Shown one piece after another: positions 961-22,233 of a DNA stretch of 24,000 nt. The notes under the pieces are model-generated. The model was not told where the DNA came from. It searched no databases and was given only the letters and a program-made list of their open reading frames with translations. The position numbers and the translations under genes were made by a program. Each line of letters opens with the position of its first letter. Within the stretch, counting starts at the first letter, position 1. Origin of the DNA: Candidatus Omnitrophota bacterium (lineage in GTDB: Bacteria; Omnitrophota; Gorgyraeia; Velamenicoccales; Velamenicoccaceae); assembly GCA_016235185.1 (NCBI GenBank), contig JACRLT010000042.1:37917-61916 (forward strand). The letters are read 5' to 3'.

Positions 961-1083
961 TAATTTTGACTTTTCGGATTTTATTTCCCTTCAAAATTAA
1001 CTCCGAAGCTTACCCCCACTGTTTCGTTTTGCTTTCGCAAAGCGAAACAAAACGGTGGGGGTGTTTAAGCAAGGAGTCTTACC
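961..1083 (-). repeat. Modular intercistronic element, family 1, copy 1 (left box, CCCCCAC hairpin, right box with 10-bp stem)
   Basis: Minus-strand reading: GGTAAGACTCCTTGCTTAAACA, then the 49-nt hairpin, then TAAGCTTCGGAGTTAATTTTGA..TCAAAATTA, then ATG. Positions 999-1076 are identical over 78 nt to 22151-22228. Stem 960-969/991-1000. Confidence 0.8.
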
Positions 1084-1092
1084 TCTGTCCTT

Positions 1093-1722
1093 TTACTTCT
1101 CACGTATCTCCCTGCCCAGGCGCGGCTGCCGTCCGGATTCTTCCAAAAGGGCCTCAAGCATAACCTGCATATCGCCAAAGCTGTAAAAACCGCTATACGA
1201 GCCGCGGATATATCCGTCCCTATCGATCAGGTAAAAAGACGGCCAGGTCGTGCTATCGTAGGCATCACGTATGGAAGAATCATCGTCTACGACTACCGGA
1301 AATAAGATCTCCAGCTTATCGATCTTCTTAAAGAGCTCGCTTTCGGACCTGTTGAATTCCCATTCCGGCGTATGGACGCCCACGATCTCAAGCCCTTTGT
1401 TCCTGTACCGGAAATACCACTGGTTAAGGTTGGCTGCCGCGCTCTCGCAATTCGGGTCGTTCAAGGTCCAGAAAAACACAATGACGACCTTGCCGATCAT
1501 GGCCTTTAGAGCCGGGGCCTTTTTGTAAGGCGAGGCATTAAACCAGACCTTGCCCTTTATTTCAGGTGCCCTGCGCTGCTCCTGCGCCGACGATACGCCC
1601 GCGCATGCCAAAAACATCATGATCAACGAAAGATTTACGGCCTTTGAAATACCATTATTATGGAAGAACGCAGAAGTAATGGAAGATTCTTTAAGCGCAC
1701 AATCAGGGATTTTTTGGCACAT
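1093..1722 (-). CDS. Secreted thioredoxin-like (redoxin/DipZ C-terminal-like) protein with a degenerate active site; start uncertain (ATG 1722 or 1620)
   Basis: The C-terminal 170 aa of ORF 1093..1953 has a thioredoxin-fold signature: KVVIVFFWTLNDPNCESAA...GLEIVGVHTPEWEF...WPSFYLIDRDGYIR. A signal-like segment AVNLSLIMMFLACAGVSSA is present. ATG 1722 is preceded by GAAGGAC. The upstream 77 codons of the tracked ORF lie over structured non-coding sequence. Confidence 0.65.
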   Translation of the reverse strand: MCQKIPDCALKESSITSAFFHNNGISKAVNLSLIMMFLACAGVSSAQEQRRAPEIKGKVWFNASPYKKAPALKAMIGKVVIVFFWTLNDPNCESAAANLNQWYFRYRNKGLEIVGVHTPEWEFNRSESELFKKIDKLEILFPVVVDDDSSIRDAYDSTTWPSFYLIDRDGYIRGSYSGFYSFGDMQVMLEALLEESGRQPRLGREIREK

Positions 1723-1860
1723 TCGACTACGTCCTTCGACAAGCCGAAGGACTCCGCTCAGTGCCAATGGTGAGCGAAGTCGAATCCATTGGCAAGGGTC
1801 TGCAAGGGATTGTATTTTAGCTGTAGCGACACGTTCTTTGGAGCGTAACAGCGAAAATAC
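1720..1860 (-). promoter_or_regulatory. Highly structured leader: pseudoknot-capable helices covering the RBS and start codon, plus a long hairpin
   Basis: Perfect complementarities are seen at 1721-1728/1778-1785, 1731-1738/1745-1752 and 1762-1770/1786-1794. The first and third cross. A further hairpin has ends 1812-1818/1854-1860. Confidence 0.4.
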
Positions 1861-1890
1861 AAACCGTAGCAGACGGCAAAAAATACCGTG

Positions 1891-1930
1891 CGCAAAGAAG
1901 CTTCCATCACTTTTGCGTAAGTCAACTATA
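1891..1930 (+). repeat. Short hairpin repeat, family 3, copy A
   Basis: CGCAAAGAAGCTTCCAT-CAC-TTTTGCGTAAGTCAA matches the reverse complement of 9552-9586 except for the central 3 nt. Confidence 0.7.
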
Positions 1931-2461
1931 CTTCGAGGGCCTATTGAGATCATGGCAGAGAGAATTGACTTCTGTTTTTAGTTTCTCGATCAGGGTCTCG
2001 TACTGCTGCTTGATATCTTCGTGATACCGGACAGCTTTTAAAAGCGCCCGGAAAGACTCTCTCTCCCTCTGCTTGACTACGTTCTTGACCGTCACATCTA
2101 TGCCGACGGCAAAACTGCCTACCGGTTCTCCCTTTTTATTTTTCATTACGATCGCCGACCACGAGATGCTTTTCTTATCGCCGTACTTGGTCACCAGGGT
2201 AAACTCTACATTCTTATAATTCTCCTTGAATGCCGCGCCTATGCTATTTAAGACTTCTTTCCTGTATTCGCCGTCGGGATATAGGAACTCCATTATCTTC
2301 TTATTGCATATCGCTTCTTTTTTAGTATATCCGGTGATCTCCTCTGCCGCCTTGTTCCAAATAAGGATGTTGCCTTCTATGTCAAAGGCAGTAAGGAGAA
2401 CATTAGCGCTGTCAATAAGCTGTTTATAAAGCTCGATATCTTTGTCCAGTAATTTACGCAT
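1922..2461 (-). CDS. Stand-alone PAS-domain protein with a C-terminal coiled-coil tail
   Basis: 179-aa ORF with a PAS S-box-like sequence (LLTAFDIEGNILIWNKAAEEITGYTKKEAI...SWSAIVMKNKKGEPVGSFAVGIDVT). ATG at 2461 is preceded by AAGGTG. Confidence 0.8.
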   Translation of the reverse strand: MRKLLDKDIELYKQLIDSANVLLTAFDIEGNILIWNKAAEEITGYTKKEAICNKKIMEFLYPDGEYRKEVLNSIGAAFKENYKNVEFTLVTKYGDKKSISWSAIVMKNKKGEPVGSFAVGIDVTVKNVVKQRERESFRALLKAVRYHEDIKQQYETLIEKLKTEVNSLCHDLNRPSKYS

Positions 2462-2572
2462 TGAGCACCTTAATTTTGCATATTTTAGGTGGTTTTTTCC
2501 TACAAAATTAACTCCGCAGCCTACCTCAAAATTATCGAAGAGAATTTTGAGGTGTCAAGGCAAGGAGCGACC
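2462..2572 (-). repeat. Modular intercistronic element, family 1, copy 2 (different central hairpin)
   Basis: Minus-strand reading: GGTCGCTCCTTGCCTTGACA, then CCTCAAAATT-loop-AATTTTGAGG, then TAGGCTGCGGAGTTAATTTTG..CAAAATTAAGGTGCTCA, then ATG. Stem 2470-2478/2503-2511. Central hairpin 2524-2552. Confidence 0.8.
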
Positions 2573-3813: not shown

Positions 3814-4457
3814 TTACAGTATTTTACAGGTTTGCCCGTCGCTGAACTAAAAAATAAAAGATCCATGTGGCCTATCGGGATATTGATACGTTTTGAAAAT
3901 TGCAACATCTTCTGTTCTATTTCAAGGTACTTCTTTGGAGTCAGGCTCTTCGGTAACTCTTCTATTGCGCTCAATTCTTTCAGGCGCCTCAAAATATGAC
4001 GGTCAAGGATCGCGAGTTTCTCGCCCTGCCCTACATTCCTTAAAAAATGGCTTGCCTCTTTATATCCCAAGCCTGAAACATTTTTCACCAGCCACTCCCG
4101 CACCGAAGAAGGATCGCCGCAAAAAACTTTTTCTTTTATCCTCAAATCCTTGGCACGGGAAAAAAACTTCCGGGCAGCCACCAGGCGGCATGCCTTCTGA
4201 TTGTAAAACCGCGCATACTTTAAAAAAGGGCCCAACTGACGCCTGTTACCTTCAAGTAAAAGTTTTTTCCCTTTAAGGCGGGTTATGATCTTTTTGCAAT
4301 TTTCAGCATTCGCCCCGGCCGTCAGCAAACAAAAACACAACTCTTCAAAAATACGGCTCTGTGCGGCAACGCGCAGCTTCCGGAAATCCAAAAGCCTTTT
4401 TTCGATTTCCCTTCTTTTTGACCTATAGGACTTCTTTAATTCGAGAATAGGATCCAT
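3810..4457 (-). CDS. ogg: N-glycosylase/DNA lyase, archaeal-type (Ogg2-like) 8-oxoguanine glycosylase
   Basis: EELCFCLLTAGANA, GLGYKEASHFLRNVG and LAILDRHIL are typical of the Ogg2 family. The start shares one nucleotide with the response-regulator stop (TGATG). Confidence 0.8.
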   Translation of the reverse strand: MDPILELKKSYRSKRREIEKRLLDFRKLRVAAQSRIFEELCFCLLTAGANAENCKKIITRLKGKKLLLEGNRRQLGPFLKYARFYNQKACRLVAARKFFSRAKDLRIKEKVFCGDPSSVREWLVKNVSGLGYKEASHFLRNVGQGEKLAILDRHILRRLKELSAIEELPKSLTPKKYLEIEQKMLQFSKRINIPIGHMDLLFFSSATGKPVKYCK

Positions 4458-6816: not shown

Positions 6817-6950
6817 CTATTTATACATCCGCGGCCTAAAACCGCGCCCTTTAAGGGCGCGAATGGTTGTGGCCGCTTGAGTATTCCGCCCAAAGCTTGC
6901 CCTCCTAAAGGAGGGGAACCCCGGGCTTTAGCCCGGATGGGCTCCATTAT
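6817..6950 (-). repeat. Leader repeat, family 2, copy X (long form with two extra hairpins)
   Basis: Read toward the lipoprotein gene: TAATGGAGCCC, then CCGGGC-TAAA-GCCCGG, then CCCTCC-TTTA-GGAGGG, then GGCGGAATACTCAAGCGGCCACAACCATTCGCGCCCTTAAAGGGCGCGGTTTTAGGCCGCGGATGTATAAATAG. This aligns with plus-strand 20775-20870. Confidence 0.7.
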
Positions 6951-11266: not shown

Positions 11267-11300
11267 AAAAAAAATACAAAAAAACCTGCCAAAAGGCAGG
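11267..11300 (-). terminator. Rho-independent terminator
   Basis: Minus strand: CCTGCC-TTTT-GGCAGG followed by TTTTTTTGTATTTTTTTT. Confidence 0.7.
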
Positions 11301-11310
11301 CAAAAGTAAA

Positions 11311-11540: not shown

Positions 11541-11576
11541 CCACCATCTTTTTCCGATACAGGAAAAAGATGGTGG
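11541..11576 (-). terminator. 15-bp perfect hairpin that includes the tmRNA 3' CCACCA (processing or termination hairpin)
   Basis: CCACCATCTTTTTCC (11541-11555), a 6-nt loop, then GGAAAAAGATGGTGG (11562-11576). No U-tract follows on the minus strand. Confidence 0.45.
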
Positions 11577-12043
11577 AGGTGGGCGGAATCGAACCGCCGT
11601 CCTTAAATTATCCGATAGAAAGCACTACATGTTTAGCCTATTTATTAATTTAACCTGTTTTACTCCAGTAGGCAGGATTAAAACAGGCTGTCCTTTTTTA
11701 GATTTAATCCCGACAACTAAAGGAATGTTGTTGGAACGAGCCTGTTTCCGGCACCTATACGCTTCCAGGCAAAACGCATAAGTGGTCCCGCTTAATGAGC
11801 GAGAGCTAACGCTGGAGTTGCAGGAGCAGCTGTCAATCCAGGATTGGTAGCCTCAGTGGAGAACAAACTTACTGTTTCCTCTGATGTAGCCGCCATACTT
11901 GGACCATTGGCAATTGCTTCAGCTTCTCTGATCAGACTTTCGTCTTTTGCGTTTATATTGTGCAAGGTGTTTAAAGAGGCCTCCTCGCAACCTCTACATG
12001 CTCCATCTACCAGTAAAACCTAAGTCGAGCCCTTTTCACCCCC
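11571..12043 (-). ncRNA. ssrA: tmRNA (SsrA), 473 nt
   Basis: The 5' end GGGGGTGAAAAGGGCTCGACTTAGG pairs with the 3' end ...GGCGGTTCGATTCCGCCCACCTCCACCA. The acceptor stem has a G3:U pair and a T-arm GGTTCGATTCC. PK1: AGAGG/CCTCT plus TGCGAGG/CCTTGCA. The resume region AAAC-GCA AAA GAC GAA parallels E. coli GCA AAC GAC GAA. Confidence 0.93.
11792..11950 (-). other. tmRNA tag-encoding reading frame (52 codons plus TAA)
   Basis: From GCA at 11950: AKDESLIREAEAIANGPSMAATSEETVSLFSTEATNPGLTAAPATPALALAH*. Translated by hand; no in-frame stop before 11794-11792. Confidence 0.55.
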
Positions 12044-12081: not shown

Positions 12082-13002
12082 TTAAAACGCTGGCCTTCTT
12101 CTAACCCCTTTTCCTGTAAAGTGTTTTATCGCTTCAGGAGGATATTCCAGGAAATATTTATCTTCTCCCAGGAATGAAGAATCCTTGAAGAAGAACTTCT
12201 CAAACTCATTAAAATTATAAGCCATAATGACTGTTTTTACAATGCTAATTATCGCATCTTTTTTCTCATCAGCCGTTAAGTCAAAGGGCGTTGTATTATA
12301 CTCAAGAGCGAAACGTTTGTAAATACGCCACTTAATCTGCTTTTCAACAAACTCCTGCATAGTCACGTCATGGTAATTGACATGTGTTCCTTCTATATCC
12401 CGATAAGATGAGGATGTTTTATTGCCATCAAGGTCAACTTGTTCTTCTATCTTCTCCAGGTCCCAAGACAGCCGGCTAAAGCCCTCACCCGAAAAATCAA
12501 CGCCAACATTATAATTCTTTAAATCGTCAATAAAACCCATATAATATTCATCAACAGTATTATTTGGATCTTCAATATTCGTAACAACAAGCACAAAAAA
12601 CGTATAGGGCTGCGTACATCTAAGTTCGAGATCGCGCATCAGTCTCACTACTTTCTGCGAGATGTATCTTAATTCAGGAGGGTCCTGCTTTCTGAACGGG
12701 TTGAAAGAGGCAATGTTATATTCAAGATTAAAAGCATTATCATTTTTTATCTTAGTCCCTGCAAGCCCTTTCCTTCCTGACGAATAAGGCATATATACCC
12801 ATAGGGTGTCATTGGCAGCCCTGCAGGTGACGCGCGCCTGGTAGCGGTTCTTGCAAATCACGGGAAGAACTCCCAGGAGCTCTTCCCGTGACATCTTAAA
12901 AGAATTCTCACACGACGTCAGAAGAACCATCAATGAACATAATAAAAAAAATCTCACAGATACCCGCGCCGGCAACATTATCTTATTTGTATTATTTTCC
13001 AT
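12082..13002 (-). CDS. Hypothetical lipoprotein encoded between the tandem FtsH gene and ssrA
   Basis: Start at ATG 13002 with GGGAG 9 nt upstream, 4 nt after the FtsH stop. MENNTNKIMLPARVSVRFFLLCSLMVLLTSCEN carries a lipobox (LTSC). The tracked longer ORF (to 13185) overlaps the ftsH-like gene. Confidence 0.65.
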   Translation of the reverse strand: MENNTNKIMLPARVSVRFFLLCSLMVLLTSCENSFKMSREELLGVLPVICKNRYQARVTCRAANDTLWVYMPYSSGRKGLAGTKIKNDNAFNLEYNIASFNPFRKQDPPELRYISQKVVRLMRDLELRCTQPYTFFVLVVTNIEDPNNTVDEYYMGFIDDLKNYNVGVDFSGEGFSRLSWDLEKIEEQVDLDGNKTSSSYRDIEGTHVNYHDVTMQEFVEKQIKWRIYKRFALEYNTTPFDLTADEKKDAIISIVKTVIMAYNFNEFEKFFFKDSSFLGEDKYFLEYPPEAIKHFTGKGVRRRPAF

Positions 13003-13006
13003 AAGC

Positions 13007-16000
13007 CTAAACTCCCGGCCTTGCTTTACCGAAAGATTTAAAAATCTCTTCCATCTGGTCATAATCCAATTCTTCTTTTTCAAGAAGTGACTGCGCGAAT
13101 TTATCAAGCAGCGCTCTTTCCTGCGAAAGTATCTTTTCAACGTCGCTGCGGCATTCGCCGATGATCTTTTGCACGTCGCTATCAAGTTTTGCCTTCATCT
13201 CTTCAGACATCCTAGATTCAGCCGGTTGGTTGCCGAAAGCAAGGGCTGAAAAGTTTCCGCTCATCCCGCTTTCACCCATGCCCCACTCATAAACCATGCT
13301 ATAGGCGACCCGCATGACATTTTTTAGATCTGCGGATACGCCTGCGGTTGTATAGCCATATTTTGTTTTTTCTGCCACATACCCTCCGAGAGATGTCTTG
13401 ATATTTGCCAGCGCCTGTTTTTGGTCAAATGCCAGGGTCTCCTCTGTGGCATGAGACCAGCTTACCCCTGCTGAGCTCTTGCGCGGAATAATACTCACCT
13501 TGAAAACATCTCTTTTGGGCTGAAGCAAATAAGTCATAATAGCGTGCCCTGCCTCATGATACGCCGTGGCTTCTTTTTCCTGACGCGACAACTGGACACG
13601 CTGCCGTAATCCCAGCTCAATACGCTCCATTGCCTCGCTTATTTCATCCATTGTAATAAAGTCTTTTTTATTCCTCACCACAAGTATGGCTGCCTCGTGG
13701 ACCATATTGGCTATATCCGCCGGAGAATAACCAACACTGATACGCGCAAGTTTATCTGTACGCACTGAATTTTTATCATAGCTGACATTGGAAAGGTAAT
13801 ATTCAAAAAGCTTTTGCCTATCTTCCAGATTGGGAAGATAGATATATAATTTACGGTCAAAACGGCCCGGGCGCAAAAGAGCCGGGTCAAAATGATCTTC
13901 GGGCATATTAGTCGCGCCAACCACCACAATATTAAACTCCGCATCTTTTTCCTTAAGGCCGTCCATCTCTACTAGAAATTGATTGAGGGTCTGATTATGC
14001 TCTCTCTGCCCTCCGAGACCCATATCAACGGCGCGCCTGGCTCCAAGTGCGTCAATTTCATCAATAAATAAAATACATCCGCCGTGAATCTGGGCCAATT
14101 CTTTAGCTTCTATGAACATACGCCGTATGCGCATAGCGCCCACTCCAACAAACATCTCAACAAATTCTGAGCCGGATTTATACAAAAACGGCAGATTAAA
14201 CTCTGTGGCCATAGCGCTGCCCAGATATGTCTTGCCGCAGCCAGGAGGCCCGAACATGAGAAGTCCCTTGATAATTTTTCCTCCGACTCTCTGCAAGCGA
14301 GCCCTGTCCTTTATCAATTCCACTACCTCACGCGCTTCCTGCTTTGTTTCATCCATGCCTATAACATCATCCCAAGTAACGCCTGTTTTTATGATGCGGG
14401 CTTCCTGGACCATTACAGCTTCTCTTGCAGGCCGCTCTTTATCGGATTCCTTAAAAATCTGCTCAATCTCATCATAATTAAGCTCTTCTTTTTCCTCTAA
14501 TTCCTTCGCCAGCTTTTCAACTATTTTCCACTCCTGTCTTAAAAGAGTATTGATCTGCCGATAACAGTGCTCGATCATCTCCTGGGCATCTTTGTCCAAA
14601 TCCTCCTGAATTAGATTAGACACGCCTGCACCTTCAAAATTGCCTATGTGTCCTGACTTACCCATCCCCCAGCGCCATACCATATTATGAGCAAGCTCCG
14701 TCGCTTTACGCAAGTCGCTTTCAGCCACATTTGAGGTCACGCCGAATTTTATCTTTTCAGAGACAAAACCTGCCAGTGATATTTTTATATCCGCCTGGAC
14801 CAGGTTTTTATCGCGGCTTAAAACCTCCTCTTTTTCAGTCAAAAGAGAAGATACAATATCTTTACCCCTGGGAATGATAGTTGCTTTAAAAACATCTTTG
14901 GTCGGAACCAACAGATATGTAACCAGGATATGGCCTGCCTCATAAAAAGAAAGCCGCGCCTTCTCTTCCTGCGTCATTCTAAAATGGCGCTTTATACCTA
15001 GCGATATCCTTTCGCGGGCCTCTTTCATTTCTTTCATAGTAATAGCAGGTTTTTTATTGCGCTGCGTTATAACCAGTGCCTCCTGAACCATATTCGCTAT
15101 TTCCGCAGGAGAAGCGCCTACGGTAATACGCGCCAAGCTCTCAATATCTGCTGAGTTTTTATCATAAGAAGTCTTTCCCAAATAATACTCAAAAAGTTTT
15201 TTGCGGTCATACGCATCAGGCAAGTCTACCACTATCTTGCGGTCAAACCTACCGGGGCGAAGAAAGGCCGGATCGAGAAATTTTTCTGACATGTTGGTAG
15301 CGCCAAATACTACTATATTATCGGCCTTACTTCTTAAGCCGTCCATTTCAACAAGCAATTGGTTTAAGGTGGTGTTGTGTTCTGTCGTGCCGCCAAAACC
15401 TTCAAACGTTCCCCTTGACATACCCATCGCATCAATCTCATCGATAAAGATAACGCACCCGCCTTCCAGGGCAGCTAATTCTCTGGCTTGCTTAAACAAC
15501 TTGCGTACCCGGCTGGCGCCGACTCCGACGAACACCTCTACAAATTCAGAACCCGACAACGATAAAAACGGAAGCTTGGTCTCGGTGGCTATAGCTTTGA
15601 CGAGATAAGTCTTACCGCAACCCGGAGGGCCCAATAATAATACTCCTTTTAATATTTTTGAGCCGCTTTTTTCAAGCTCTACCCTGTCTGTTATAAGCTG
15701 CACAACCTCTCTTGCCTCTTTCTTCGACTCCTCCATCCCGATGACATCTTCCCAGCGCACACCGATATCTGCGCCTCTGATATAAGACTTGCCTATTCGA
15801 GTAAAAGCCCTGGCTGCATCGCCGCGCATAATAAACACCCACATCAATCCAAAAATTACCGATTGAATAACCGCAAAATAAAGCTGGAACGGAAACCCCC
15901 CTATCGTACGCTGCTTAGTCACAAAATCTACACTGGACCACTCCGAAATTCCACGATAAAGAAGGATACCCACCGAGATAACCATAACTAAAGACACAAC

Positions 16001-16060
16001 AACCATAATTATTTTGATCCAGTGCAATTTGAAAAATATTTTCATTCTTTTGTTATCCAT
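13007..16060 (-). CDS. Tandem-duplicated FtsH-like AAA+ metalloprotease: 2 TM helices, then [AAA+ and M41-like] twice
   Basis: Walker A GPPGCGKT is at aa 144-151 and 604-611. Walker B IFIDEID is at aa 204-210 and 664-670. Pore loops are FVEVFVGVGA and FVEMFVGVGA. The SRH LRPGRFDRK occurs twice. The protease motif is YEAGH at aa 373-377 (nt 14930-14944) and HEAGH at aa 835-839 (nt 13544-13558). AAGGAG RBS. Confidence 0.9.
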   Translation of the reverse strand: MDNKRMKIFFKLHWIKIIMVVVSLVMVISVGILLYRGISEWSSVDFVTKQRTIGGFPFQLYFAVIQSVIFGLMWVFIMRGDAARAFTRIGKSYIRGADIGVRWEDVIGMEESKKEAREVVQLITDRVELEKSGSKILKGVLLLGPPGCGKTYLVKAIATETKLPFLSLSGSEFVEVFVGVGASRVRKLFKQARELAALEGGCVIFIDEIDAMGMSRGTFEGFGGTTEHNTTLNQLLVEMDGLRSKADNIVVFGATNMSEKFLDPAFLRPGRFDRKIVVDLPDAYDRKKLFEYYLGKTSYDKNSADIESLARITVGASPAEIANMVQEALVITQRNKKPAITMKEMKEARERISLGIKRHFRMTQEEKARLSFYEAGHILVTYLLVPTKDVFKATIIPRGKDIVSSLLTEKEEVLSRDKNLVQADIKISLAGFVSEKIKFGVTSNVAESDLRKATELAHNMVWRWGMGKSGHIGNFEGAGVSNLIQEDLDKDAQEMIEHCYRQINTLLRQEWKIVEKLAKELEEKEELNYDEIEQIFKESDKERPAREAVMVQEARIIKTGVTWDDVIGMDETKQEAREVVELIKDRARLQRVGGKIIKGLLMFGPPGCGKTYLGSAMATEFNLPFLYKSGSEFVEMFVGVGAMRIRRMFIEAKELAQIHGGCILFIDEIDALGARRAVDMGLGGQREHNQTLNQFLVEMDGLKEKDAEFNIVVVGATNMPEDHFDPALLRPGRFDRKLYIYLPNLEDRQKLFEYYLSNVSYDKNSVRTDKLARISVGYSPADIANMVHEAAILVVRNKKDFITMDEISEAMERIELGLRQRVQLSRQEKEATAYHEAGHAIMTYLLQPKRDVFKVSIIPRKSSAGVSWSHATEETLAFDQKQALANIKTSLGGYVAEKTKYGYTTAGVSADLKNVMRVAYSMVYEWGMGESGMSGNFSALAFGNQPAESRMSEEMKAKLDSDVQKIIGECRSDVEKILSQERALLDKFAQSLLEKEELDYDQMEEIFKSFGKARPGV

Positions 16061-16075: not shown

Positions 16076-16528
16076 TCACTTGTTCTTAAGCATTCTCTTC
16101 ATTGCCAAATTCGCTTCTCGGCGTCTTATATCTTGGCGCCTATCATATGTTTTTTTACCCTTGGCTAAAGATAGGGCCACCTTAACAAAACCTCTCGCGT
16201 TAAAATACATCTTCATCGGCACAAGCGTAAAACCACGCTGAGAAACCTTGCCTATTAATTTTTTTATCTGTGCGTGATGCAAGAGAAGACGCCTGGGCCT
16301 TGTGGCCTCTTCCTTAAAATAGCTGGCCTTTTCGTATGGGGTTATATGGCAGTTATGTAGATATATTTCGTTGCCTTCAATGCGGGCAAAGGCATCGTCG
16401 ATATTTGCCTTGTGGTCCCTAAGCGACTTGACTTCACTGCCCTTTAGCTCAAGACCGCACTCCAGGGTCTCTAAAACCTCATAATCCCTGAACAATTTGC
16501 GGTTTGTGGCTATGACCTTTTCGTCCAT
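16076..16528 (-). CDS. smpB: SsrA-binding protein SmpB
   Basis: IATNRKLFRDYEVLETLECGLELKGSEVKSLR...LHNCHITPYE...RPRRLLLH..EI.KL...KGFTLVPMKMYF..G.VKV.L.LAKGKK.YDRR. Confidence 0.95.
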   Translation of the reverse strand: MDEKVIATNRKLFRDYEVLETLECGLELKGSEVKSLRDHKANIDDAFARIEGNEIYLHNCHITPYEKASYFKEEATRPRRLLLHHAQIKKLIGKVSQRGFTLVPMKMYFNARGFVKVALSLAKGKKTYDRRQDIRRREANLAMKRMLKNK

Positions 16529-20527: not shown

Positions 20528-20580
20528 ATGCTGGTATCCGCCGAAGGCGGATTTCGCTGGATCGTTACATAGATGTGCTT

Positions 20581-20609
20581 ATTATATACGGCGGGCTTTT
20601 ACTTTTCAA
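20581..20609 (-). promoter_or_regulatory. Consensus sigma70-type promoter for the NSS transporter operon
   Basis: Minus strand: TTGAAA (20609-20604), a 17-nt spacer, then TATAAT (20586-20581), about 55 nt upstream of ATG 20527. The leader contains hairpin ATCCGCC-TTC-GGCGGAT. Confidence 0.6.
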
Positions 20610-20699
20610 CTTTTTAATGCGCAGACACTTTATGGAACATTAGTGAACATAAAGTGTAGGCCTCGCCTGCCTCCGGCAGGCAGGGCAGTCTGCGAATTA

Positions 20700-20748
20700 C
20701 CCCCACTGATTCGTTTTGCATTCGCAAAGCGAATCAAAACGGTGGGGG
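20700..20748 (+). repeat. 49-nt CCCCCAC...GTGGGGG three-helix hairpin module, variant copy
   Basis: It differs from the copies at 1013-1061 and 22165-22213 at 3 positions. Two of them (module positions 21 and 35) are a compensatory T:A to A:T swap. Confidence 0.75.
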
Positions 20749-20774
20749 TAAATTCCGCCCAATAACTTACGTCG

Positions 20775-20870
20775 TAAATGGAGCCCGGTGTTCCTTTGGC
20801 GGAATACTTGAAGCGGCCGCAACCATACGCAGCCTAAAGGGCACGGTTTTAGGCCACGAAAGTATAAGTG
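20775..20870 (+). repeat. Leader repeat, family 2, copy Y (short form)
   Basis: TAAATGGAGCCCGG...TTTGGCGGAATACTTGAAGCGGCCGCAACCATACGCAGCCTAAAGGGCACGGTTTTAGGCCACGAAAGTATAAGTGG, directly upstream of the DedA/YqaA-like gene. It aligns with the reverse complement of 6817-6950. Confidence 0.7.
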
Positions 20871-21525: not shown

Positions 21526-21675
21526 CTATTTCTTTTTAATCTCGTCTAATATCCTGTCGAGCTTAGTCTCGATACGCAGCAATATCTCCATCTTCTTCTG
21601 TTCCATCTTCGCCTGGCTATCCTGCAATTCCTTGGCTGCCTGGGCCATCTTCGCCATATCCGGTAAATTAAACAT
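21526..21675 (-). CDS. 49-aa predicted coiled-coil small protein (not in the ORF track)
   Basis: AAGGAG lies 7 nt upstream of ATG 21675. MFNLPDMAKMAQAAKELQDSQAKMEQKKMEILLRIETKLDRILDEIKKK*. It is preceded by family-1 copy 3. Confidence 0.45.
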   Translation of the reverse strand: MFNLPDMAKMAQAAKELQDSQAKMEQKKMEILLRIETKLDRILDEIKKK

Positions 21676-21805
21676 CAATTTACTCTCCTTAATTTTGCAT
21701 TTTCTGGGTATTTTTCTTCACAAAATTAACTCCGAAGCCAGCGATGGAATTTCGTGCCGGAGAACCCTGGCACGAAATTACGAGCGCTTTGGCAAGGAGT
21801 CTACC
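21676..21805 (-). repeat. Modular intercistronic element, family 1, copy 3 (third type of central hairpin)
   Basis: Minus-strand reading: GGTAGACTCCTTGCCAAAGCG.., then AATTTCGTGCC-loop-GGCACGAAATT (21748-21779), then ..CGCTGGCTTCGGAGTTAATTTTG..CAAAATTAAGGAGAGTAAATTG, then ATG. Stem 21689-21697/21721-21729. Confidence 0.8.
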
Positions 21806-22098
21806 TAGAATTTTTTCCCGTGCCTGTATGGACGGCTCTTGTTTTTTTCGGCTTTCTTCTTCAGCGCTGCCTCAAGGTCTATTCCGCGGGCGCCGCAATA
21901 ATCAAAGATCCTGATACAGCAATCCGCGAGCTCCTCGGCAACATCATCTTTGCCTAAGTCATTGCGCATAGCCTCTAACGCCTCCGATAACTCCGAATGC
22001 ATGAGTGCGATGAGCTCGCCATCGGAGCGTTCAAAATCCCACCACCCTTTTTCCTTGGCGGTCTTGTAACATAATTCGATCCAACTATTAATAGTCAT
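21805..22098 (-). CDS. MazG-like nucleotide pyrophosphohydrolase family protein (small all-alpha NTP-PPase)
   Basis: 97 aa. LMHSELSEALEA...AEELADCCIRIFD is an E/D-rich metal-binding helix pair. The C-terminal NKSRPYRHGKKF is typical of the MazG-like family. Confidence 0.75.
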   Translation of the reverse strand: MTINSWIELCYKTAKEKGWWDFERSDGELIALMHSELSEALEAMRNDLGKDDVAEELADCCIRIFDYCGARGIDLEAALKKKAEKNKSRPYRHGKKF

Positions 22099-22233
22099 TG
22101 TTTTGCTCCTTGATTTTGCCTATATTTAGGTATTTTTACTTTACAAAATCAACTCCGAAGCTTACCCCCACTGTTTCGTTTTGCTTTCGCAAAGCGAAAC
22201 AAAACGGTGGGGGTGTTTAAGCAAGGAGCTAAC
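22099..22233 (-). repeat. Modular intercistronic element, family 1, copy 4
   Basis: Minus-strand reading: GTTAGCTCCTTGCTTAAACA, then the 49-nt hairpin, then TAAGCTTCGGAGTTGATTTTG..CAAAATCAAGGAGCAAAACA, then ATG. The 5' end overlaps the trpF stop (22229-22231). Stem 22110-22118/22144-22152 covaries with the other copies. Confidence 0.8.

Follow-up and report, generated by a model that had tools for sequence, protein, structure and literature searches.

The DNA analyzed here (the window) is a 24,000-nt stretch from a Candidatus Omnitrophota bacterium (GenBank assembly GCA_016235185.1, contig JACRLT010000042.1, positions 37,917 to 61,916 of the forward strand). Omnitrophota is a phylum with almost no cultured members, whose bacteria are ultra-small and in part predatory. 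Four spacers between minus-strand genes of the window carry copies of one structured repeat. The initial annotation had described four minus-strand copies with one layout, and all of them were found at the positions and on the strand that it gave. Pfam bore out the flanking genes that it had named (PNPOx and PAS; AhpC/thioredoxin-like and metallo-beta-lactamase plus beta-CASP). The flanks of copies 4 and 3 were assigned to PRAI and MazG, and to MazG and a small open reading frame (ORF), respectively.

On the minus strand, every copy consists of a left box (CTCCTTGC), a strong hairpin, a right box (GC..CGGAGTTRATTTTG), an A-rich stretch of 23–25 nt, and CAAAATYAA. AGGAG comes next, and the start codon lies 4–9 nt further on; copy 1 is the exception, with ATG following directly. 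The right box CGGAGTTRATTTTG had exactly four matches in the window (992–1005, 2503–2516, 21721–21734, and 22144–22157), whereas the chance expectation was 0.5 and four matches were reached in 0 of 100 shuffles. In every copy, CAAAATYAAGGAG was located 23–25 nt 3' of the right box and CTCCTTGC was located upstream. The folding z scores of copies 1–4 against shuffles were −5.5, −2.9, −2.7, and −5.6, respectively. The sense consensus reads (AAGGA)AUAAGCGUUG-ACUCC-UU-GCUUA-(central hairpin)-UAAGC-UG-CGGAGU and continues as UAAUUUUG-(loop)-CAAAAUUA-AGGAG-N4-9-AUG. Helices P1 (ACUCC/GGAGU) and P1b (GCUU/AAGC) together enclose the variable central region. The AU-rich helix P2 (UAAUUUUG/CAAAAUUA) follows, and no unpaired base separates P1 from P2. 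The repeat measures about 100–120 nt in the four window spacers. Units of the family are about 100–170 nt long and contain stop codons in all frames, which excluded MIRU-like mini-ORFs.

Copy 1 (961–1077, minus strand, as are all coordinates of the four copies) lies between the Trx-like gene (stop 1093–1095) and the beta-CASP gene (ATG 958–960). Its P1 pairs 1073–1077 with 1000–1004, its P1b pairs 1067–1070 with 1008–1011, and a 51-nt palindrome is nested at about 1013–1064. P2 pairs 992–999 with 961–968 around a loop at 969–991. No Shine–Dalgarno (SD) sequence follows P2; an ancestral SD-like GAGG is located 5' of the unit at 1082–1085. Copy 2 (2466–2568) lies between the PNPOx-like gene (stop 2602–2604) and the PAS gene (ATG 2459–2461). 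It has P1 at 2564–2568 (GCUCC) with 2511–2515, P1b at 2558–2561 with 2519–2522, a short central hairpin at about 2524–2552, P2 at 2503–2510 with 2471–2478 (loop 2479–2502), and an SD-like AGGUG at 2466–2470. Copy 3 (21685–21800) separates a MazG-like gene (stop 21805–21807) from a 50-codon ORF (TTG 21676–21678, ATG 21673–21675). Its P1 pairs 21796–21800 with 21729–21733, its P2 pairs 21721–21728 with 21690–21697 (loop 21698–21720), and the SD AGGAG is at 21685–21689. Copy 4 (22106–22229) lies between trpF and the MazG-like gene (ATG 22096–22098), and the trpF stop codon TAG (22229–22231) overlaps the first base of its left box. Its P1 pairs 22225–22229 with 22152–22156, its P2 pairs 22144–22151 (UGAUUUUG) with 22111–22118 (CAAAAUCA) around a loop at 22119–22143, and its SD is at 22106–22110. 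The claim that AAGGAG precedes the ATG held only in part: copy 1 lacks AAGGAG and its ATG abuts the second hairpin (CAAAATTA-ATG), and copy 2 has AAGGTG. Logan contigs from SRR12113394 and SRR12113397 carry genes identical to those of the window; their ends fall within copy 4 and within another repeat-bearing spacer.

A covariance model built from 33 units found no further copy in the window. The four known copies scored 127 (copy 3), 106 (copy 4), 94.8 (copy 2), and 89.9 bits (copy 1). Copy 3, the best match, carries the family-typical central hairpin, type A.

To find the family elsewhere, species-representative genomes, a set that does not include the source genome, were scanned with the pattern CGGAGTTRATTTTG-N18-30-CAAAATYAA. 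The scan returned 40 loci. The full architecture was present in 34 of them, from nine Omnitrophota records, three of which carry the label 'uncultured Planctomycetia'. Ca. Velamenicoccus archaeovorus LiM (phylum Omnitrophota), the one cultured host, contributes eight of the 34 from its complete genome. The architecture was absent from the other six (Brevibacillus, Salegentibacter, Thermoplasmata, and Ignavibacterium), which we regard as chance matches, as is the single exact-pattern match in viral contigs, located inside a coding sequence. The covariance model recovered 56 units at E ≤ 0.01 in 287 kb from nine genomes. By both kinds of search, the family is present in nine Omnitrophota genomes.

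Rfam 15 matched only a tmRNA in the window, and nothing came near the gathering score at the copies. E-value scans of copies 3 and 4 and of one tandem array gave only microRNA-hairpin noise, whose scores did not exceed 30 bits (thresholds, 90–249). In the literature on Velamenicoccus and on Omnitrophota repeats and stem-loops, no description of the family was found. These results agree with the initial annotation, in which the element was not recognized as a described RNA family. We conclude with high confidence that the copies belong to an undescribed, self-folding intergenic repeat family of some Omnitrophota lineages.

The fold was examined in two alignments. In a MAFFT alignment, 95.5% of the cells were paired, compared with 88.6% in shuffles and 37–60% with slid partners, and 15 pairs had changed on both sides, compared with 6.4 in shuffles (reached in 0 of 500). 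In a larger alignment, which was fitted to the model and therefore leans towards structure, 25 of 28 pairs had changed on both sides, including seven of eight in P2. Direct reading of the sequences gave seven different compensated versions of P2, including TTCATTTTG/CAAAATGAA, TTGGTTTTG/CAAAACCAA, TTAACTTTG/CAAAGTTAA, TTAATCTCG/CGAGATTAA, TTAATTCCG/CGGAATTAA, and TTGTTCCCG/CGGGAACAA. The covarying stems proposed from the window alone are therefore real. The complementarity ACTCC/GGAGT, the change of GCTTA/TAAGC to GCCT/AGGC, and the change of TTAATTTTG/CAAAATTAA to TTGATTTTG/CAAAATCAA all correspond to covarying pairs in the wider family.

The central hairpin varies between units. As had been claimed, copies 1 and 4 carry an identical central hairpin and copies 2 and 3 carry a different one each. 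Copies 1 and 4 are 94% identical over 96 nt, and their left halves (78 nt) are identical although the copies lie 21 kb apart. A third copy of the 51-nt palindrome stands free at 20699–20749 (no strand assigned), with neither left nor right box. It is located in a divergent spacer (20528–20867) upstream of TTGAAA-17-TATAAT (20609–20581), and the palindrome was absent from all 124 fetched loci. The free-standing copy indicates that the 'swappable' hairpin of copies 1 and 4 is an independent module nested into units, which supports the modular nature proposed for the element. The short hairpin of copy 2 resembles one in CG1_02_44_16. The type A central hairpin is CGCUUGUAAAUUUU..GCCAGG-(variable tip)-CCGGC..AAAAUUUACGGCG, and the type A P2 loop is YAAGGAA.A..ACCY...UAUAGR. 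Type B units, found in UBA6210, LiM, DeMMO3_19, and one metagenome relative, have a different central hairpin, and in their P2 (UUAAUCUCG-CCAGAGG-CGAGAUUAA) the A-rich loop is replaced by a 7-nt loop. Extra hairpins are inserted at tips, 3' of the central hairpin, or within the P2 loop. The P2 loop (CCUAA..UAUAGG) was also considered as a GAAA tetraloop receptor, but this was rejected, as the motif is not conserved in the CG1_02_44_16 lineage.

Units also often occur in tandem. They are arranged head to tail with a period of 126–172 nt, and the next unit starts 10 nt after the preceding AAGGA. Another recurring module, GGTAGGCCTCCGCATTCCACATAGCGGAGGGYCTAAT followed by the hairpin TTCCGCC-NNNN-GGCGGAAGGATTA, precedes or follows units of this family (L027:2255-2325, L034:~900-940, L009:~4185-4225, and L035:~6855-6900). 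The set of module types in the mosaic is thus larger than that seen in the four window copies.

Every unit examined was co-directional with its flanking genes. In most units, the left box begins 0–30 nt downstream of a co-directional ORF's stop codon. The 3' end of P2 is followed by AGGAG with a start codon 9–14 nt from the P2 end, by a direct ATG, or by another unit. ATG stands directly at P2 in pheT (three times), nrdR (twice), rubredoxin, and the beta-CASP gene of the window. The pheT and nrdR units have the geometry of copy 1: AAGGA, 10 nt, the unit, and AUG. The downstream genes are unrelated housekeeping genes (S11, L19, L31, LysS, PheT, NrdR, ACP, ClpP, rubredoxin, and others). Units occupy equivalent junctions in different genomes, namely rpsM/rpsK (LiM and CG1_02_44_16) and the positions upstream of lysS, pheT, and nrdR. 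A four-unit array of LiM, also counted as 3.5 units, lies downstream of a classical terminator plus TTGACT-17-TATAGT and upstream of a gene, which places the array inside a 5' untranslated region (UTR). In Ca. Velamenicoccus archaeovorus, the first array unit (L015:6700-6790, minus strand) is degenerate and has lost its central hairpin; its left part is the near-consensus promoter TTGACT-17-TATAGT, right after the classical terminator. By its sequence, this unit hints that left halves of units may become promoters or derive from them.

The history of the window copies was followed in relatives. A metagenome search with the beta-CASP protein gave 80 loci (640 kb in total), and 13 of them keep part or all of the window gene order, with beta-CASP amino-acid identities of 67–82%. 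The longest kept order is HK-RR-Ogg-HhH-GPD-PNPOx-PAS-Trx-betaCASP. Copy 1 was absent in all 13 syntenic relatives, including L045 and L049; there, the Trx gene either overlaps the beta-CASP gene at ATGA or ends 4 nt before it. Copy 2 was absent in the seven syntenic relatives with the PAS gene, and the PNPOx/PAS spacer is 7–17 nt in most of them. Because the syntenic relatives have spacers of only 0–17 nt, copies 1 and 2 are insertions in the lineage of the window. The segment inserted as copy 1 begins with P1 and ends with P2; the ancestral SD region ..CAGAGGT..AAGA lies on its 5' side and ATG on its 3' side. Over the 80 loci, the covariance model found a single unit, of type B and with a fully compensated P2, so that unit density was one in 640 kb of relatives versus four in the 24-kb window. 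With the absence of copies 1 and 2 from syntenic relatives and the placement of units between stop codon and ribosome-binding site (RBS) or ATG, the family agrees with the portable intercistronic element ending at the RBS or start codon that had been proposed. In G+C-rich relatives, the PNPOx/PAS junction holds a different hairpin insert of ~100 nt (..GCCGCGGGCATGCCCGCGGGGC.., L055:4590-4675 and L058:4745-4842), and the junction looks like a hot spot for structured inserts.

Orthologous units were compared with the 4-fold degenerate sites of the adjacent gene, and the unit was more conserved in seven of seven pairs. The conservation values (unit/4-fold sites) were 0.95/0.71, 0.95/0.80, 0.89/0.67, 0.86/0.78, 0.79/0.72, and 0.92/0.81, and 0.81/0.37 for rpsM/rpsK. 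Since they are more conserved than 4-fold degenerate sites, the units are under purifying constraint. The family thus both spreads and is constrained. With MITEs (miniature inverted-repeat transposable elements) of the Correia, RUP, and ERIC type, it shares a length below 200 bp, the lack of coding capacity, dispersed copies, strong pairing, and filled and empty sites.

We tentatively favor a mobile, transcribed, mosaic repeat of the BOX/ERIC/Correia kind that loops itself out of the mRNA, with the RBS behind it left exposed. Our confidence in how the element works is moderate to low. A unit would insert in the orientation of transcription, after one gene's stop codon and before the next gene's start, and would be co-transcribed with the neighboring genes. 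In the RNA, the left box would pair with the right box (P1 and P1b) around the variable hairpin, and P2 would form directly 3' of it. As P1 and P2 abut, the RNA would enter and leave the fold at one helix junction, and the insert of ~100–170 nt would be looped out. The SD or AUG would then be single-stranded directly 3' of the weak, AU-rich P2 helix. Where a unit separates SD from AUG (copy 1, pheT, and nrdR), folding could restore an SD–AUG distance of ~5–10 nt. The unit may also insulate the RBS behind it from sequence further 5': the SD was predicted to be unpaired with a probability of 0.46 behind the native unit, compared with 0.38 behind a shuffled one (p = 0.003). The long hairpin is probably a segment-stability or processing signal as well. 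Near-perfect as it is, it would suit an exonuclease barrier or an RNase III-type processing site, roles that have been reported for REP, ERIC, and Correia (PMC2229807, PMC3049150).

The fold itself is clearer than the strand or molecule that folds. In the consensus helices, the sense strand had 35 G-U versus 12 A-C (p = 5e-4), and the MAFFT alignment gave 21 versus 7. Several points weigh against a repeat that folds out of the mRNA. The count of 35 versus 12 comes from the model-fitted alignment of related copies. Whole-unit folding energy gave no strand signal between sense and antisense, with the sense strand more stable in 23 of 52 units, and the G-U counts of the whole-unit folds were 124 versus 117; a hairpin at the DNA level would fit this lack of a sense-strand preference. 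The stem sequences are conserved well beyond pairing needs. This implies that a sequence-specific partner, perhaps an RNA-binding factor or a mobilizing enzyme, recognizes the stems. The SD was predicted to be more accessible without any upstream RNA (0.69) than behind the native unit (0.46), and any insulation would thus be a modest, computed effect. The U-rich tract UUAAUUUUG 3' of P1 resembles a terminator. As for mobility, no clear target-site duplication was seen in two filled/empty comparisons, although an AAGGT-GCTC similarity, ambiguous as a duplication, flanks copy 2. The terminal inverted repeat is just 6 bp (CTCCTT/AAGGAG) and doubles as the SD.

Part of this evidence would also suit selfish palindromic DNA of the REP, PATE, or MITE kind, whose hairpins a transposase or recombinase would read in single-stranded or cruciform DNA. 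Position and orientation would then reflect a target preference beside SD-like AAGGAG/CTCCTT, and the RNA fold would merely render insertion harmless. We consider this rather unlikely. It is consistent with the insertion of copies 1 and 2 relative to syntenic relatives, the patchy distribution (one match in 640 kb against four in the window), the tandem arrays, and the inverted-repeat termini. It is also consistent with the identical left halves of copies 1 and 4, the palindrome nested in both, the excess conservation of the stems, and the whole-unit folding without strand preference. However, Pfam found no transposase encoded within the window, and neither a target-site duplication nor TA termini were evident at the two filled/empty junctions. 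All examined units are co-directional with flanking genes and end at an RBS, and G-U exceeds A-C on the sense strand within the helices. The persistence of orthologous units while synonymous sites saturate is hard to square with a pure parasite.

Two readings assign the element a regulatory task at the level of the transcript. In one, which seems improbable to us, it would punctuate transcription: the long hairpin and UUAAUUUUG would terminate, an internal promoter in the left box (TTGACT, 17 nt, TAAATT) or in the P2 loop would restart, and P2 would be a 5'-UTR hairpin. Its strong hairpin is indeed followed by a tract with 6–7 U in 9 nt. This tail (UUAAUUUUG in type A, UUAAUCUCG in type B), however, is the 5' arm of a covarying helix; selection on P2 pairing implies that RNA must read through it. 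Units lie inside conserved operons such as rpsM/rpsK, and the genuine terminators nearby in these genomes have uninterrupted U7 runs, unlike the unit tails. We therefore rejected an intrinsic terminator, with partial termination possible. Promoters were sought as −35 and −10 hexamers with A2 and T6, 16–18 bp apart and conserved across copies. In the left part of the unit, TTGACT of the left box and, 17 nt on, TAAATT of the hairpin arm form a weaker −35/−10-like pair in a fixed register; 9 of 12 matches were reached in 8 of 33 units, compared with 1.1 in shuffles. The central hairpin of copy 2 contains the best sigma70-like match of the window (TTGACA-16-GATAAT, 2558–2531). The degenerate first unit of the Velamenicoccus array and the ATG abutting P2 in several genes, which would suit leaderless mRNAs, also point this way. 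Against it, copies 1 and 4 have the strongest hairpins, the same tail, and no promoter-like site (best 5–6 of 12, with the left-part pair absent), and an efficient terminator would silence the conserved genes behind them. The internal promoter that the initial annotation had offered within the right box was not borne out: in the P2 region, 9 of 12 matches occurred in only 3 of 41 units, versus 1.2 with shuffled loops, the spacing of the candidate hexamers varied by several bases, and type B units keep a loop of just 7 nt. The window has ordinary signals elsewhere, namely the TTGAAA-17-TATAAT at 20609–20581 and a tmRNA terminator with a U7 run. The other reading, to which we give very little credence, is an SD-sequestering switch in which the left box CUCCUU would allow translation when paired with the right-box GGAG and block it when paired with the downstream SD. 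The complementarity of left box and SD exists, the centroid fold of copy 4 pairs them, and the SD is predicted to be only about 46% unpaired. However, changes in the left box covary with changes in the right-box GGAG (ACCCC/GGGGU in three cases, ACUUC/GAAGU in one) and the SD remains AAGGAG, so the conserved pairing is that of the two boxes; the mutually exclusive pairing suggested earlier is not supported. An SD is missing 3' of P2 in several units, the genes that follow have unrelated functions, and no conserved junction resembles a ligand pocket.

Two further candidates were rejected. A sigma54 −24/−12 reading of CGGAGTTRATTTTGCA, made by eye, failed as the GC of the −12 element is often GT and the bases lie within a covarying stem. 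An integron attC site did not fit, as the ends (GTTAATT or GTTGATT) do not match the RYYYAAC...GTTRRRY core and the flanks are housekeeping operon genes.

A bolder form of the fold-out repeat is a translationally transparent mobile element for operon interiors, which would insert at or inside an RBS, restore it by folding, and depend on a dedicated sequence-specific factor. We regard it as unlikely. P1/P2 stacking would rejoin a split SD and AUG, or the unit would bring its own SD. If true, the host could use the units as genome-wide post-transcriptional punctuation for processing, stability, or ribosome loading, and this would be a mode of RBS organization not described for any repeat family.

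The covariance model is a ready-made annotation tool for Omnitrophota intergenic regions, and the family explains some assembly breaks. The units are a natural case in which an insert of ~100–170 nt inside tightly coupled operons, including rpsM/rpsK, has not destroyed them, and in which the constraint on a family exceeds, across lineages, that on synonymous sites. If a folded-out unit or a split RBS is the right reading, it would show mobile repeats colonizing operon interiors and provide a natural RBS-insulator design. If the units are selfish DNA, they would point to a hairpin-recognizing mobilization system in Omnitrophota.

Other features of the window were also noted. The tmRNA gene (11571–12043, minus strand) matches Rfam RF00023 at full length with 170 bits; a hairpin of canonical terminator-like form, with a U7 run, is found further downstream (11284–11301), and an smpB-like ORF is at 16076–16528. 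A second repeat family has two 74-nt intergenic copies (6821–6893 and 20795–20867), 84% identical and in inverted orientation, with related sequence in metagenome loci L059, L060, and L088. The PAS/Trx spacer (1621–1921, minus strand) is 301 nt long, versus 66–108 nt in syntenic relatives; its folding energy is −110.8 kcal/mol, and a total of 95 nt have 85% identity to L043:1797-1891 (CG1_02_44_16). It is probably another inserted structured element. ORF 1093–1953 is over-extended, and homology places the start of the Trx-like gene at the ATG at 1620. ORFs 12082–13185 and 13007–16060 (minus strand) overlap by 179 nt, and the upstream TTG start of the 367-codon ORF is probably mis-called.

Small structured intergenic repeats are known in other bacteria, and the likeness to BOX, ERIC, and Correia elements drawn in the initial annotation is apt. 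In phage T4 genes 38 and 25, a hairpin between SD and AUG of a split RBS brings both to a working distance. This resembles the geometry proposed for copy 1, pheT, and nrdR; the T4 case is a single-gene feature, whereas the Omnitrophota insert has ~100–140 nt and two stacked helices and is a dispersed repeat. MIRU of Mycobacterium tuberculosis are intercistronic, operon-directed, and tandem, and abut the flanking stop and start codons; their short ORFs overlap the flanking genes, and MIRU act by way of these ORFs. The Omnitrophota units share the intercistronic, co-directional, and tandem habit, but have stops in all frames and would act, if at all, through folding. REP/BIME of E. coli act as stabilizers or attenuators at mRNA 3' ends. 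BIME units alternate in orientation, usually lie 3' of genes, have a GTAG-type motif, and are linked to RAYT transposases. Like the Omnitrophota units, REP/BIME are extragenic mosaics of palindromes and linker motifs within transcription units; the Omnitrophota arrays differ in being head to tail and in lacking the GTAG motif. ERIC/IRU of enterobacteria are imperfect palindromes of ~127 nt that alter the stability of the flanking mRNA segments in an orientation-dependent way (PMC2229807). They are likewise co-transcribed within operons, but occur in either orientation, are not positioned at the RBS, and differ in sequence and phylum. Correia/NEMIS elements of Neisseria have 100–160 nt, their long stem-loop RNA is a proposed RNase III target, and some copies create promoters (PMC2229807). 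They share the size, the many intergenic copies, and the filled and empty sites between relatives. Correia elements have 24–26-bp terminal inverted repeats, TA termini, and a TA duplication, whereas the Omnitrophota units have a 6-bp terminal inverted repeat, no duplication seen, and an orientation fixed relative to genes. In the BOX element of Streptococcus pneumoniae (boxA-boxB(n)-boxC), the ends pair and the internal module varies in number or kind while the fold is kept; like the Omnitrophota units, it is predicted to form a tight fold once transcribed and to influence co-transcribed genes (PMC3049150). BOX and the Omnitrophota units are both composite intergenic modules with ends pairing around a variable middle, but their sequences are unrelated, and BOX occurs in both orientations and is not anchored at the RBS. 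The Omnitrophota repeat differs from BOX, ERIC, Correia, and BIME in being locked to the direction of transcription, in ending at the RBS or start codon, and in forming head-to-tail arrays of whole units. What is new is this Omnitrophota family.

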